A DNA stretch of 64,000 nt from a virus (IMGVR_UViG_3300029288_000057:1-64000), one strand, 5' to 3'. Numbered from the stretch's first letter, positions 49,406-55,955 are shown. A program made the numbers and translations. The notes: generated from the letters alone by a model not told the origin.

Positions 49406-52025
49406 TGTTTTTGTTTTTTATGAATAAATGATTTTATTTGTTTTCTATTTTTCCTAAGAGTTGATTTATCAGAGATAGAATGCGTAGTATTTCATCGTCA
49501 TCTTTTGCATTACATCTTTCAAATTTGTTGCGAGCCATGCATATTTCATTCTGCAGAACAAGTTTTGAATTATTTTTAATACATTCTTTAATTTCTTCTG
49601 AATTTCTTGGCTTCATATTTTGTTATGCATTTTCATTGTTAATTTCAAACGTTTCGCTTCCGCAGAAGGGACATTTTTCATCTACGTGCTCATCAAAATA
49701 CTCTCCGCAGATGGTGCATTTATATTTCATGTCATCATTCAAGTTTTCCAGTTTGACGTCGGTTTCACAAACAAACTCTTCTTCTGTGATTAAGTATCCC
49801 AACCTGTTTACGAGATGGTATCCTGCGCTGTAATACATTCTCTCCTCAGCCTCTATGATTGTCCAAACTCTCTTGGGGTTCTCTTTTGCGAAATCAAGGA
49901 TATAATCGATTTCTGTTCCATAGGTCTCGAACATACATCCGCCAAAAGCGGCATTGTCATCAATGTGATTCTTTACAAAATTGAACTGTTCATGGAATTC
50001 GTCCTCTGTAAGTTCTAACAAAGTAACATCAACATCAAAAGATGAGTCGCATTTTGGGCAGGTTGTATGAAGTCCCAGTTCGTCGTTAAAGACTTTTGTG
50101 ACTTTGAATTCGTGTCCGCAATTTAAACATGAAGTTTTCATTTTTCTTTTTTTGGTTATTATGAATGTATAAAGAAAACTTTCTCAAAAAGAGGGAACTG
50201 TTTTTATATAACAGCGTAAGCCCCCAGGATTCGTCCCCCCTCGTCAATATGACATTCTACTTTTACCTCGAAGTTTACATCTCTCATTTCAGGGTCCTGA
50301 AGTTCATATTTGCCCACATTCAAAACCACAAAGGTGTTTTTATCCATCTTATAAGTATCAGGGAGTTTCATCACTTCCTTCTTATAAATGAATTCCTGGT
50401 TAAAGTCTTTTTGGAGGCGTGTGATGTATTTTGACGCTCGAATATAATATTCGGCAATACGCCGCACACTTTTAAAAATCTTTGATTCTTTTCTTTCTTC
50501 TAATTTAAAATACTGTGCCATTAAGTATAAATTTAAAAGGGAATTGGGATTTTATAATTTAATCCCCAACTCCTTTAAGTTTGTGTTTAAAATTCTTTCT
50601 CCTTTTTGTAATTGTGATTTTAGATTATCGTAGGCTCTTTGAATTAAAGCAATTGCTTCGTCTCCATAGGAGGTAACCATTTCTTTCATTGGAGTTCTAA
50701 AATCACACTGTAACCTGCAGCTTTTATCCGTTCCAACAATAACACTCTTTAAGCAATTCTTTTCAATTTTCTTTTGAAACTTTTTAATTGCTTGGAGGTT
50801 TACAGTTTCGTCGATTACATTTTCAGCTTGGCAATGCAGGTCAATCTTCTTTATGTCTTTCAAAAAGTCCCAACCATTCTCAAACATCAGCTGAGCCACT
50901 TTGTTGTCTGAAAGAAATTTCTCAAATTCTTTTTGGTGTGCGGGGGACAAATAAACAACATCGGTTTCACCTCTGTTGCCATCATCGCTAAAGTAGCCCA
51001 TTTTTTTGCCTTTAAGATAAAAATCGGCGTACATACCTGCTAGGTCGTGTCCAATGTCAAGTTTTACATTCTTTAATGTAACCTGCTCGACAATTTCTCT
51101 TCCTTTTTCTGTATCAAGAATTGATTTCATAATGGTATTATTTTGATTATATAAAGCGAATTTATTTGAAGGGGGGTTGTTATTTGTCTGTGTCAATAGA
51201 CCCGAAGGGACACTCTTCATCTTCTTCAATGCTTTCAATGTGGTCTCCAATTCCATCATTCAAAATTTGGTCAACACATTTCTTTCTTACATTGGTTGCA
51301 ATTGCATCCAATTCTTCTTCTTCTGAAAGATTATCTTCAACGATTACCCTTACCATTAAAGACACGCCTATAAGTTTTGCTATTTTTCCCATGATTTCTA
51401 TTTTTATGTTATAAAGCCATTCTTTTGAAAAAGAGGGAAATCCCTATTCTTCCTCTCTCATTTGTTTTCTCAGCAAGGAAACAATTTGCCTAATGGATTT
51501 TACAGGAACCGACACTTTGCCGAAACCGTTCAAGTCTGCTAATGAACCTGTAGGATATGGTTGGTTATTTCTTTCACCAGGTTCAATTTTGAGTTCACCA
51601 TTTTTCAGGTCTCCAGGGACAAAACTAAGCATAAGACACTTTTCTTTAAAATAGGGGAATACTGATACTCTGCAGCACAGACCCATAGGAATATATTTTT
51701 CATTCTCCTCAAATGTTAATTCGGGCATTCGTTTTTTAACTTCTTCTATTAATGGTTTTATCAGGTTTTCTGTCCAGTGGGGATAAGCTTTTTCTCTCTT
51801 TACTTTCAACCTTTCAATTTGTCTTTCTTTGAGTGCAATCTTTGCCTCTATGGCTGTTTGTGCTTTTTTCTTTTCGACAAAAAGATTCTGAATTTCTGTA
51901 AATTTTTCCATGACTTTAATTTTGGTATATAAAGCAAATTGTTTTAAAAAGAGGGAAATTTCACAAAATCTTAGGTTCAAATCTAATTTCCGCTTTTTTA
52001 GACTATTTATAGAAAAGATGAAATT

Positions 52026-53054
52026 ATGAATACATGTTTAAATTGCGGACAAGAAACAAATAACAAAAAATTTTGTTCTATTAAATGCCAAATGGAGTAT
52101 CAGAACAAAGAAAGATGTGATAAGAGGTTTGGGTTGTTTAAAAATTTTACAGTAAAATGTAATAAGTGCGAAAAAGAGCTTATAGTTAATGAAAGAGAAA
52201 AACTATTCCCACAAAAGGAAAAATATTATTGTGGGAGGGGTTGCGCTAATAGTAGAGTACATAATGACATTTCTAAAGAAAAAATTAGAAAAGCGCTAAC
52301 TAAAAACAATGTAGTCAAAATAATTTGTAAACAGTGCAGTGGGGAGTTTGAAGTTCCTTATAAAGAAAGAAAACAGCTGTTTTGTTCCAGAAGCTGTGCT
52401 GCTATATTTAAAGGTAACGTTATAAGAAACACAATAAAAAATAAACCAATAATTAAAATAAGAAAAGAAAAAGATATAAATAAAATTACGTTCATATACA
52501 GTTTAGAATATCCATTGGGGAATATACGATATATAGGAAAATCTGACCATCCAAAAGCCAGATTAAAAGACCACATTAAAGAAGCAAAACAAAGAAATAA
52601 AAGTCATAAAGATAAATGGTTAAATAGCTTAAGCGAGCTTCCAATACTGAACATTATTGAGGAAACTACATACGCCGATTGGCAAGCCAGGGAGATGTAT
52701 TGGATTAAATTTTATAAAGGCAAAGGATTTAATCTTGTTAATGGAACTGACGGAGGGGAAGGTAGTAATGGGTTTCTGGGGAAAACTCATACAATTGAAA
52801 ATAGAAAAAAGCTTGCAGAATGTAATAAAAATAGAATTATTTCACAAGAAACCAAAGATAAATTGAGTGGGGAAAACAGTGGAAGGTGTAAATTAAAGGA
52901 TGATGAGGTGAGAGATGTTTTTCATATGTTTTGTGACGAGCATAAAACTCGTAGGGAGATTGCTGATAAATATAATATTAATCCAAATTATATTAATCAA
53001 CTAATTTCAGGGAGAAAACGCAAAAATATATTTAATGAGTTTAACTCATTATAA
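52026..53054 (+). CDS. GIY-YIG homing endonuclease with N-terminal Zn-binding repeats and NUMOD3/HTH C-terminus
   Basis: FIYSLEYPLGNIRYIGKS..KARLKDH..AREMYWI..LVNGTDGGEG..LGKTHTIENRKKL; three CxxC..[FY]CxxxC repeats. Confidence 0.88.
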   Translation: MNTCLNCGQETNNKKFCSIKCQMEYQNKERCDKRFGLFKNFTVKCNKCEKELIVNEREKLFPQKEKYYCGRGCANSRVHNDISKEKIRKALTKNNVVKIICKQCSGEFEVPYKERKQLFCSRSCAAIFKGNVIRNTIKNKPIIKIRKEKDINKITFIYSLEYPLGNIRYIGKSDHPKARLKDHIKEAKQRNKSHKDKWLNSLSELPILNIIEETTYADWQAREMYWIKFYKGKGFNLVNGTDGGEGSNGFLGKTHTIENRKKLAECNKNRIISQETKDKLSGENSGRCKLKDDEVRDVFHMFCDEHKTRREIADKYNINPNYINQLISGRKRKNIFNEFNSL

Positions 53055-53066
53055 ATCAGTATATTG

Positions 53067-53140
53067 TCATGCTGGTGGGAATTGAACCCAACATTGCTGA
53101 TGTGAAAGACCAGATTCCTAACCATTTAGAAGACAGCACG
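53067..53140 (-). tRNA. tRNA-Glu (UUC), copy 2
   Basis: Acceptor CGTGCTG/CAGCATG; anticodon arm CTGGT-CTTTCAC-ATCAG; T-arm TGGG-TTCAATT-CCCA. Confidence 0.82.
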
Positions 53141-53143
53141 TTG

Positions 53144-53220
53144 TACCATGTATGGGACTCGAACCCATGACCTTTGCAGTGAAAGTGCAATGACTTACAA
53201 TCCATCTCGTCGAACATGGC
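53144..53220 (-). tRNA. tRNA-Glu (UUC), copy 1
   Basis: Acceptor GCCATGT/ACATGGT; anticodon arm TTGCA-CTTTCAC-TGCAA; T-arm ATGGG-TTCGAGT-CCCAT. Confidence 0.9.
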
Positions 53221-53221
53221 A

Positions 53222-53255
53222 TAAAAAAAGCGGGAGACTTTCGTATCCCGCTTCT
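53222..53255 (-). terminator. Intrinsic terminator immediately upstream of the tRNA-Glu pair (attenuator candidate)
   Basis: AAGCGGGAUAC-GAAA-GUCUCCCGCUUUUUUU; U-tract ends 2 nt before the tRNA 5' end. Confidence 0.85.
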
Positions 53256-53277
53256 AAGCTTTTTGTAAATTAACCTT

Positions 53278-53349
53278 TTACATAGTTTTGTCAGGGACAC
53301 AATTGTTGTGAACTTCCTCGCTTTCCTCTGTGTAAAAATTAATCTTCAT
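53278..53349 (-). CDS. Putative Glu-rich leader peptide (23 aa)
   Basis: MKINFYTEESEEVHNNCVPDKTM*; codons GAG GAA AGC GAG GAA; A-rich leader AATAAAATG. Confidence 0.6.
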   Translation of the reverse strand: MKINFYTEESEEVHNNCVPDKTM

Positions 53350-53374
53350 TTTATTCGTAACTTGTTAATTTGTA

Positions 53375-53445
53375 GTGCGGGAGCAGGAGTTGAACCTACA
53401 TATGCTGCTTATGAGACAGCCAATCTACCATTAATATATCCCGCA
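53375..53445 (-). tRNA. tRNA-Met (CAU), weak D-arm
   Basis: Acceptor TGCGGGA/TCCCGCA; anticodon arm GCTGT-CTCATAA-GCAGC; T-arm GTAGG-TTCAACT-CCTGC. Confidence 0.75.
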
Positions 53446-53936
53446 ATATATTGTATCTTTAAATAGTCAAAAAAAATCTTTTCTACGACTTTTATACGCA
53501 AATATACGAAAAAAGTTTCAATAAACGCAAGAAAAAAGCAAAATATTTTTAAAAAACCTTCTTAATATTTATCAATTTTCTTAACTCATACTGTGTTCCA
53601 TCAACAATAGTAATTAATCCCAATTGGTCTTTATATTCCACTTTTCCTTTAAGAGGCTTGCTGTTTACATCATTACAACAATCTTGAAACTCTATTGTGT
53701 CGCCTGGTTTAACAGTTGTATTTTTCACAAATTGTTTACGTATCACAACATTGTCGGGGTGATTTTCAATTTCTTCTTTTGTCATAGGCACTACTTTGTA
53801 CATAAAATCTGGTGTTTGCGTTGCCGCAAAGTCTTCACATTCTTGTTTTGTGCCATCAAAACAACCTTGCCCTTCATCTTCGTGATAGTGTAAGTCTAAT
53901 ACTTGATGTGTTTTCATACTCAAAATTTTTTAAAAT

Positions 53937-54215
53937 TTATTTTAACAGATAAATAACTGTTGTAACAGCTTTATTCGTCACCATCTGCTTGGCTTTTTTT
54001 ACGTTTTTGTTTACTTCCTTTTTTGCTTCTTTCTTTAAGTTCACTTTCTTTGCATCGGAAATAATCATAGAAGCATGTTCTTCGGTTATCTGTCCGTTTT
54101 TCACCAGTGCGTTTGCATTGGCTTTGCTTCTTTTAACGTAATTGTTTTGTTCAATCGTTGCACAACTGGCAAAGGCAAACATTGCAATGACTAATAGAAT
54201 AACTAACTTTTTCAT
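53937..54215 (-). CDS. Putative lipoprotein
   Basis: MKKLVILLVIAMFAFASC lipobox. Confidence 0.72.
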   Translation of the reverse strand: MKKLVILLVIAMFAFASCATIEQNNYVKRSKANANALVKNGQITEEHASMIISDAKKVNLKKEAKKEVNKNVKKAKQMVTNKAVTTVIYLLK

Positions 54216-55955
54216 CTTGTTTATTTTTTTAATTTATTATATAAAGACATCTGCTCAAAAAAGAAGGAAACTGTCTTTAATGTCCCCTCAATACACAATA
54301 CAATTCTTCTCCCTTAAAACCTCTTATCATTTCTCTGAGCAACGCAATTGCCATTTTGAATCTTCGGTATGGTTCAAGCTTGTTGTCAGTAACAATCGCT
54401 TCTAAAACTTCTTTTATGGGGACAAGTCGAAGGGGGGCGCCGTAGCAATCTGTTTTAATTTCAAATTCTTCATCACACTTTTTACAATATCCCTCATAGT
54501 AATAAGTGCGGGGGTACTTCTTGGCATTTCTCTTTTTTTGAATTCTTTCAATAAGCTTACCAAAATTGCCAGTATAAACTTTGGATAGTTCTAAGGAAGC
54601 AAGCTTTATAAAATAAGTCTTTACTCTTCTATGAGGCTCGTCAAGTTTCCTCCCAATCAATAATTCGGTTTCGTATCCCATGGCATTTAGTTATTTTGAG
54701 TTAATAATTTCGAGATATGCCTTTGCTTCTGTTTCGTTGTACATTGCATAGCGATTCATTTGTTTTCCTTTATATGGTTTCAAAGTTTCTTTGTCAACAA
54801 CTTTTCCTTCTTCATTTAAAAAATAGTAATAGGTTGCACAAACTGGCATTCCGCTGGGCAAAGATTTTGCATGATAAGGGATATACTGAGTAAATTGTAA
54901 TGTAAACTTTGCCATTGTTATAAATAATTAAGAGTTGAATATATAAAGGATGAGTTCAAAAAAGAGGGAGAGTTTTCACTCTCCGTCTTTTTAAGTATGC
55001 ACAAGGTTAAAAAACACTTCTGTATATCCTTTTGGTTTGCGAGGTTCAATAGAAATCAGGTGCCTTGCCCATGAACCAACCAGATTTTGGGGGTCTGTGC
55101 TTCTAAAGTCGCCGCCGCCCCGTCCGTTTTCCTCGCAAGTAAGCAGAGGTAGGGGGTGAATTTGCCAACCGCCTTTATTGGGTACTTTGCTTTTATCCAC
55201 AAACTGTTTTGTAGTATGGTTCACAATGTATTTAGCTTTAACAAGCTGTAAGGGGGGGGAGACTTTGAGTTTATCTTTACAGCGTTGGTAAACATTTGTT
55301 TTTAATCCTTTGTCTTCATCTGCATAGTCGCCTGCCCATACAACAATCTGTGGCTTTTGCAAAATCAGATTTTCAAATGCTCCAACAAATTTGTTTCCCA
55401 ACCATGAATGCTCCATGAGTTTTGCTCCACAGGTATAATCCCATGATTCCATAAACAATTCAACTGTTCTTTTGTTTTTTCCAAGAATACTTGGTTTATA
55501 ATATTGTCCCATGACTTCAATTTTTTGGTTAATAATTTATTATATAAAGCAAATTTTTTATAAAAGAGGGAGAGTTATTTTGCCAAGTTCATATCTAAAT
55601 CAAAATCAGCTTGGTTATTTTGAACCAGTTCAACTTTCAAATCGAATAATCTGTATTTGTCCGCAATGCTGAGAAAATAACCGTCATGTGCGGCAATAGC
55701 CAAATCTGCAAAGTTAAATTCTCCGCCTGAATATTCCCACATTCTTCTGCCATTTTCATTATAAGTTATATATGTGCTAATGGCGTGTTTAAGAGATTCC
55801 AAAAAAGCATCTGCATGAAGCTTTTCTTCATTTGAAATTGTCATAATAACAGTAATGGTTTTGTCGGCATTTTGCCCTCTTGCAATAAATCTGTTCATGG
55901 TTTTTGTTTTTGATTTATGAATATATAAAGCAAATGTTTTTAAAAAGAGGGAGAG

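Follow-up and report, generated by a model that had tools for sequence, protein, structure and literature searches.

A putative leader-peptide attenuator with two tRNA-Glu genes as its output in an uncultured phage

Two tandem tRNA-Glu(UUC) genes of an uncultured phage are probably controlled by a ribosome-mediated (leader-peptide) transcription attenuator, whose output would be the phage's own tRNAs. We base this reading on the sequence and on folding models. The parts of such an attenuator, with their spacing and two mutually exclusive pairings, are present at the locus; the choice between the pairings switches with ribosome position in silico; and leaders whose codons match the tRNA genes behind them recur in related phages. 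An earlier note, made from this DNA alone, had interpreted the locus as a Glu-sensing attenuator. That interpretation gains support from the codon matching in relatives, from three further Glu cassettes and from folding of the nascent RNA.

Results

A leader ORF with a Glu run and an intrinsic terminator precede two tRNA-Glu genes

The source record is a 290,886-bp IMG/VR virus, an uncultured phage that is estimated to be 91% complete and has a GC content of about 33%. We analysed its first 64 kb, hereafter called the window. The whole record contains three tRNA genes, all of them within one cassette at 53067-53445, and all cassette coordinates refer to the minus strand. The features of the cassette, in the order of transcription, are as follows.

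53499-53531, minus strand: cassette promoter, with TTG at 53530-53528, a 21-nt spacer and TATATTTG at 53506-53499, a TAnnTTTG-type -7 box
53375-53445, minus strand: tRNA-Met(CAU), between promoter and leader (ARAGORN; Rfam 54.1 bits)
53278-53349, minus strand: leader ORF, with an ATG start, 23 codons and TAA
53331-53348, minus strand: 5' strand of a predicted ORF-enclosing helix, 17 bp with 53282-53264 in the MFE folds
53314-53328, minus strand: putative sensor codons 8-12, GAG GAA AGC GAG GAA (EESEE)
53294-53302, minus strand: putative antiterminator strand UUGUGUCCC in codons 17-19, nearly the same as the terminator 3' arm
53264-53282, minus strand: 3' strand of the ORF-enclosing helix, covering the stop codon in the MFE folds
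53223-53253, minus strand: intrinsic terminator, with a stem of 53253-53243 and 53238-53228, a GAAA loop at 53242-53239 and a U7 tract at 53229-53223
53143-53220, minus strand: tRNA-Glu(UUC) #1, 78 nt with a long D-loop (ARAGORN; Rfam 35.3 bits)
53067-53140, minus strand: tRNA-Glu(UUC) #2, found by Rfam only (43.7 bits; gathering score 29) and without an ARAGORN call

Using ARAGORN, Rfam and the sequence itself, we confirmed what the earlier note had described, namely a tRNA-Met gene followed by a 23-codon ORF in which the EESEE run holds the only Glu residues (codons 8, 9, 11 and 12). The ORF starts in an A-rich context without a Shine-Dalgarno sequence, and in this it resembles the starts of other genes in the phage. 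The strong GAAA-loop terminator 2 nt ahead of the two tandem tRNA-Glu(UUC) genes also proved to be as that note had it. Its stem consists of 10 pairs and one U.C mismatch, with a predicted ΔG of -16.3 kcal/mol, and two nucleotides (A, U) separate its U7 tract from tRNA-Glu #1. Termination at this site is expected to be efficient. tRNA-Glu #2 is about 61% identical to #1, and its anticodon loop, CUUUCAC, gives the anticodon UUC. GAA makes up 6.0% of the phage codons and ranks second among them, which is a plain reason for tuning the supply of tRNA-Glu.

Within the leader ORF, GUGUCCC (53300-53294) can pair with GGGAUAC (53249-53243) of the terminator 5' arm over 7 bp, including one G-U pair. 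This pairing, put forward in the earlier note as an antiterminator that excludes the terminator, not only held but can be extended to 9 bp (53302-53294 with 53249-53241).

The locus on its own is near chance levels in several respects

Taken alone, the antiterminator pairing is unremarkable and common by chance: a complement of at least 7 bp to the terminator 5' arm was present in 31% of shuffled leaders and in 53% of random genomic windows. Inside the ORF, no segment pairs better with the 5' arm than UUGUGUCCC (shuffle p = 0.010). Runs of at least four Glu codons in five occur 29 times in 582 kb, and the expectation is about 0.0065 per 130 nt when all frames are counted, before the frame and an ORF are required; the chance probability of the Glu run is about 0.005. 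By composition only, Glu (4 of 22 codons vs a background of 7.5%) falls short of significance (p = 0.08). Judged from the locus without comparisons, the attenuator reading would be only suggestive, and at that stage we would have rated it as rather improbable.

The tRNA cassette interrupts an array of other promoters

A bipartite promoter (CCCTCTT, 15-16 nt, CTTTATATA) occurs in 46 copies between 41436 (41.4 kb) and 83.9 kb of the record. All copies except one (45/46) lie on the minus strand, and behind each there is a small gene whose ATG is 21-37 nt downstream. In 21 of the 46, box 1 doubles as the 3' arm of a hairpin, that is, terminator and promoter overlap. The tRNA cassette breaks into this array with a promoter of its own that differs from it (TTG-N21-TATATTTG).

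Comparing the cassette terminator with the array, we find that its 3' arm and T-run (53238-53223) are identical to box 1 at 14 of 16 bases, but read CCCGC and are not followed by box 2, which is present after 33 of the 34 strict copies of box 1. The terminator 3' arm is thus not a boundary element of the 46-copy array.

The tRNA-Met gene is located 5' of the terminator and is therefore ungated by it. Downstream, promoter motifs of either phage class were absent from 53374-53221, the stretch from tRNA-Met to tRNA-Glu, and the 2-nt gap between the terminator and tRNA-Glu #1 leaves no space for a promoter there. Transcripts of the tRNA-Glu genes must therefore cross the terminator, in line with the absence of a separate promoter, on which the reading of the earlier note depends.

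Two more observations concern promoters elsewhere in the phage. A third, sigma-70-like class (TGAAAC, 17 nt, CGTATAAT) was seen on the plus strand at window positions 2261, 18422, 22731 and 32746, where it precedes plus-strand genes of the first 40 kb. Outside the window, at about 230,700-230,480 (minus strand) of the record, there is another TAnnTTTG-type promoter with the 5' UTR motif TTTTTTGACTAT; the GC-richer stretch after it may be another non-coding RNA.

The tRNA array is faced by a convergent gene (52026-53054, plus strand; Pfam GIY-YIG 33.1 bits) for a GIY-YIG/NUMOD homing endonuclease. The zinc-finger N-terminus of this endonuclease has homologues at the equivalent position beside the tRNA clusters of two other jumbo phages (coordinates given with this observation: L089 2501-3025, L090 2501-2923 and L025 2205-2621), and in L025 and L026 there are HNH endonuclease genes among the tRNAs. 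The tRNA gene region of T4 adjoins the GIY-YIG endonuclease SegB, and the phage shares with T4 this placement of a tRNA cluster beside a GIY-YIG homing endonuclease gene. We know of no leader-peptide attenuator described for the T4 tRNA cluster.

Leaders match the downstream tRNA genes in related jumbo phages

Four relatives (G002, G006, G007 and G010), which carry 7-55 tRNAs, were reached via a 173-aa marker protein and the endonuclease. We collected cassettes from them by a rule that is blind to codon content: a strong terminator no more than 70 nt before a tRNA, and the longest ATG ORF ending no more than 75 nt before that terminator. The rule yielded nine cassettes, and all nine terminators were preceded by an ORF of 23-36 codons. 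Examples are listed below.

L094, 4043-4150, minus strand: leader cassette
L095, 8428-8526, minus strand: leader cassette
L096, 3819-3911, minus strand: leader cassette
L100, 1581-1691, minus strand: leader cassette
L106, 2599-2694, minus strand: leader cassette
L110, 2064-2150, minus strand: leader cassette

In eight of the nine leaders, the amino acids served by the downstream tRNA block are overrepresented, with binomial p values from 3e-5 to 0.0085. The ninth, which stands before two tRNA-Asp genes, fits once the array further downstream is counted. Setting every leader against every block in a matrix, we find that each of the nine peaks at the set of its own block or at a near-identical set. 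One leader exists in a G002 and a G010 version that differ by a Glu codon, and tRNA-Glu is present in that block only in G002. Among the tRNAs of the relatives that have no upstream terminator, no comparable leader ORF was found. In nine of ten cassettes, this locus included, the segment that pairs best with the terminator 5' arm is in the distal third of the leader and closely follows the matched codons. The correspondence between leader codons and downstream anticodons that the earlier note had proposed to look for in related phages is thus present in 8/9 leaders, and it extends to the three Glu cassettes described below.

Some other features of these relatives were noticed. G002, G006 and G007 carry tRNAs with a CUA anticodon (L097, L110 and L115), and G006 carries one with a UUA anticodon (L108). 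These are possible suppressors that hint at stop-codon reassignment in the relatives; the phage of the window has none. Near its tRNA region, G006 (372 kb) has a GOLLD RNA, truncated at the locus end to its 5' part (72.9 bits; L090 1-180, minus strand), and a small SRP RNA (42.3 bits; L090 650-733, minus strand). Two jumbo phages have in common a conserved non-coding stretch of about 300 nt upstream of their last tRNA-Met (L089 3430-3732 and L090 3393-3690, both minus strand), for which Rfam gave nothing at E <= 0.01.

Three homologous cassettes also place a Glu run before tRNA-Glu

Upstream of tRNA-Met, the promoter and 5' UTR can be aligned with those located immediately before the leaders of G006 and G007. 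Using the shared promoter as the sole criterion, we scanned metagenomes and kept the unique cassettes with a tRNA within 520 nt. This promoter-anchored scan returned 17 unique cassettes, 11 of which have a match between leader and block at p < 0.03. Glu cassettes among the 17 are listed here with their tRNA-Met(-like) elements, the one at our locus being the tRNA-Met at 53375-53445 of the window.

L243, 418-492: Glu cassette with one tRNA-Glu gene; tRNA-Met-like element at 329-401 (33.7 bits as a tRNA)
L322, 2040-2114: Glu cassette with one tRNA-Glu gene; tRNA-Met-like element at about 1960-2035
L337, 1233-1307: Glu cassette with at least two tRNA-Glu genes; tRNA-Met-like element at about 1145-1225

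The promoters of these three are homologous to the cassette promoter of our phage. Their leaders have 23-24 codons, with a Glu run that begins at codon 8 as it does here (4/4 Glu cassettes), and their tRNA-Glu genes start shortly past the T-run. Each has a predicted ORF-enclosing helix, a near copy of the terminator 3' arm in the distal codons, and a terminator; the GAAA loop is common to L322 and this locus. In all four, promoter and leader are separated by a tRNA-Met or by a degenerate, tRNA-like element whose loop has CAU. A Ser codon (AGC or AGT) is found within the Glu run at codon 10 (53322-53320 in the window) in three of the four, namely here and in L322 and L337, and no tRNA-Ser lies behind any of them.

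Alignment of the leader with its counterparts in L322 and L337 is possible, and is poor over most of the leader body. In codons 8-11 (E-E-S-E), comparison with L322 reveals three synonymous third-position differences and no non-synonymous one. The terminator 5' arm resembles those of L322 and L337, and one stem position is C-G here and A-T there, a compensatory change. Synonymous-only differences in codons 8-11 and the compensatory stem change point to selection. The in-frame Glu run from codon 8 in four cassettes, together with the synonymous changes, points to translation, and the leader ORF is presumably translated.

The locus has the shared promoter and 5' UTR, a Glu leader ahead of a tRNA-Glu block and a distal copy of the 3' arm (codons 17-19), as the codon-matched cassettes do. 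Those of G002, G006, G007, G010 and the metagenome contigs have in common with it the promoter, a leader of 23-36 codons, the distal 3'-arm copy, the terminator and a tRNA 2-70 nt further on. It differs from those of the relatives in that a single amino acid would be sensed, a complete tRNA-Met precedes the leader, and its phage has three tRNA genes vs 7-55 in theirs.

The homologous Glu cassettes are distant from this one: their tRNA-Glu genes are 55-64% identical to those here. The consensus that RNAalifold derived for the four was weak (-7.6 kcal/mol), the automatic alignment being poor. The phage itself aside, the best homologue of the conserved 173-aa neighbour is 71% identical. The sole other copy of the locus that we found, on a Logan contig, is 100% identical and therefore offers no variation for covariation testing. 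The phage collection gave no DNA match to the locus, and viral contigs scanned for the exact patterns of tRNA-Met, tRNA-Glu #2 and the terminator contained none of them. The pattern of tRNA-Glu #1 did match in viral contigs, only in an unrelated phage, and was rejected. Other routes to relatives were also discarded. Homologues of the upstream 124-aa neighbour cover its first half only and lie in contigs without the tRNA locus; matches to a 17-mer of the 5' UTR were mostly unrelated coding sequence, G006 being the only true one; and the alignment of the leader with the G002 spacer after a tRNA-Met-like element was at chance level beyond about 15 nt.

Ribosome position switches the predicted pairing of the nascent RNA

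Equilibrium folding with ribosome masks was tried first. It favoured the terminator in every ribosome state, and any mechanism therefore has to be kinetic, as in trp. We replaced it by folding of the nascent RNA, that is, the RNA existing before the terminator 3' arm emerges, with and without a ribosome footprint. The earlier note had predicted that a ribosome on the Glu codons would leave the antiterminator free to form, and such a switch was obtained.

In this model, which is crude in that the footprint is fixed and the upstream RNA is removed, a ribosome with its A site at codons 1-14 leads to sequestration of the terminator 5' arm with P > 0.99, in the 9-bp antiterminator structure (-14.9 kcal/mol). 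With a ribosome at codon 15 through the stop codon, the probability of sequestration falls to about 0.03. With no ribosome it is 0.30, i.e. not fully off; the 17-bp ORF-enclosing helix, together with base pairs between the antiterminator strand and the Glu tract, holds it at this value. The on-window spans codons 1-14, so a stall at any early codon is also predicted to cause read-through and the modelled response is not Glu-specific. Null leaders had such a switch in 7-10% of cases by a basic criterion, and in 0.4% when the on-window had to be at least 30 nt, as broad as it is here. Among the homologous Glu cassettes, the same crude model had L337 on for codons 1-16 and off from codon 19, like this locus, while the switch was untidy in L322 and weak in L243.

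Discussion

A proposed mechanism

The locus combines the features by which attenuators are recognised: a short upstream ORF, a cluster of sensed codons, a terminator without a later promoter and, in silico, an antiterminator that depends on ribosome position. We propose that transcription from TTG-N21-TATATTTG would first yield the ungated tRNA-Met and then the 23-codon leader. When Glu-tRNA is plentiful, the ribosome would reach codons 15-23 or the stop codon, covering or passing UUGUGUCCC; the terminator hairpin would form, and RNA polymerase would halt at U7, 2 nt short of tRNA-Glu. When Glu-tRNA is scarce, the ribosome would stall at codons 8-12 (EESEE) and open the ORF-enclosing helix. 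UUGUGUCCC, freed by the stall, would then pair with the terminator 5' arm, and read-through would allow transcription of both tRNA-Glu genes. If no ribosome is present, the leader would fold on itself and the terminator would form. Read-through would in this way respond to charged tRNA-Glu. Judging from the cassette and its modelled folding, tRNA-Glu is probably made only when ribosomes read Glu codons slowly.

Relation to known attenuators

The trpL, hisL, pheL, leuL and thrL leaders of enterobacteria share with the cassette a short ORF in which sensed codons form a run, a distal strand that pairs with the terminator 5' arm, an intrinsic terminator about 20-25 nt past the stop codon, and a pairing internal to the leader that holds the antiterminator strand when there is no ribosome. 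A 23-codon leader with four of five codons in the run being sensed codons falls within the range of these classical attenuators. The logic is that of trpL, hisL and pheL; new are the tRNA genes as output, and the occurrence in a phage. The regulated genes of all described attenuators serve amino-acid biosynthesis or encode a synthetase, the classical ones leading to biosynthetic enzymes, whereas here they are two tRNA-Glu genes. As these lie behind the terminator, the output is the sensed molecule itself. The cassette is also unlike the classical attenuators in its TAnnTTTG-type promoter, in having no Shine-Dalgarno sequence and in the tRNA-Met ahead of the leader in the transcript.

Another related system is the pheM leader of E. 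coli pheST, where attenuation acts on a tRNA synthetase gene. There too, stalling at cognate codons controls part of the translation apparatus; the output is a synthetase protein in that case and a tRNA in this one. In a full-text literature search, we found no published description of attenuation of tRNA genes.

Alternative explanations

At the outset we viewed the locus as a leaky terminator or a small RNA, and this view was abandoned after the comparative tests. According to the first of these explanations, an ordinary terminator, leaky or programmed in time, would end the tRNA-Met unit, and the tRNA-Glu genes would be transcribed as a fixed trickle or by a later, modified polymerase, the ORF and its Glu run being incidental. 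Several observations agree with it. Terminators are common in the phage between genes of one direction, a hairpin being found upstream of 21/46 promoter cassettes; the terminator 3' arm and T-run share 14/16 bases with a repeated promoter box; the antiterminator pairing by itself is frequent by chance; and the neighbouring GIY-YIG endonuclease suggests that the tRNA-Glu genes could be a mobile insertion. It leaves unexplained, however, why the Glu run, the 3'-arm copy and the layout recur in three promoter-homologous tRNA-Glu cassettes, and why 8/9 terminator-gated tRNA blocks of the relatives have block-matched leaders. We consider a plain terminator unlikely.

The spacer between tRNA-Met and tRNA-Glu (153 nt) might instead be a stable small RNA, a long hairpin with a terminator that is freed by RNase P and RNase Z and acts in trans or has no function. 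The spacer is flanked by two tRNAs, so their processing would release such an RNA, and it folds better than its shuffles (z = -2.8). Small stable RNAs are known from the T4 tRNA cluster. Attenuator RNAs can also act in trans, rnTrpL being a precedent (PMC6614838). The region gives no Rfam match above noise, however, and the codon-level pattern points to translation. We hold this explanation to be quite improbable in place of attenuation, with which a small-RNA role could coexist.

Least probable is direct, T-box-like sensing of tRNA-Glu without a ribosome, in which the Glu codons would be a specifier pairing with the anticodon. In its favour, the output is tRNA-related and the Glu codons are exposed beside a terminator/antiterminator pair; T-box riboswitches likewise couple the state of a specific tRNA to that choice. 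They bind uncharged tRNA directly, however, without translation, regulate synthetase or amino-acid genes and have conserved motifs that are missing here: there is no T-box motif, and Rfam gave no T-box hit in 52000-54500 at E <= 1. The Glu codons belong to the reading frame of an ORF that starts with ATG and is conserved in length and phase, and the leaders of the relatives contain many different codons in a single frame, as would fit a ribosome rather than one specifier.

Implications for phage tRNA genes

To our knowledge, the regulation of phage tRNA genes has hardly been addressed so far. Their roles have long been debated, and those proposed include codon compensation, making up for host tRNAs that are degraded, and evasion of anticodon nucleases; phage tRNAs counter anticodon-nuclease defences (PMC10264068, PMC11464382). 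Tentatively, and as one possibility that we would not put first, a leader-peptide attenuator could keep the spare tRNA-Glu pair silent until the host tRNA-Glu pool collapses, through cleavage by a defence nuclease or through phage-induced decay of host tRNAs. This would amount to an inducible, self-limiting counter-defence, and the conserved tRNA-Met(-like) element might be a working part of it, for example if its processing fixed the 5' end of the leader mRNA. An anticodon nuclease as the trigger of tRNA-Glu induction is speculation on our part.

The locus provides a simple test case, with one amino acid, four sensor codons, one terminator and two tRNA genes in about 300 nt. If the attenuator reading is true, the classical trp/his logic would operate here with the sensed molecule as its output, and the phage would gauge decoding speed codon by codon and replenish exactly the tRNA that is limiting.
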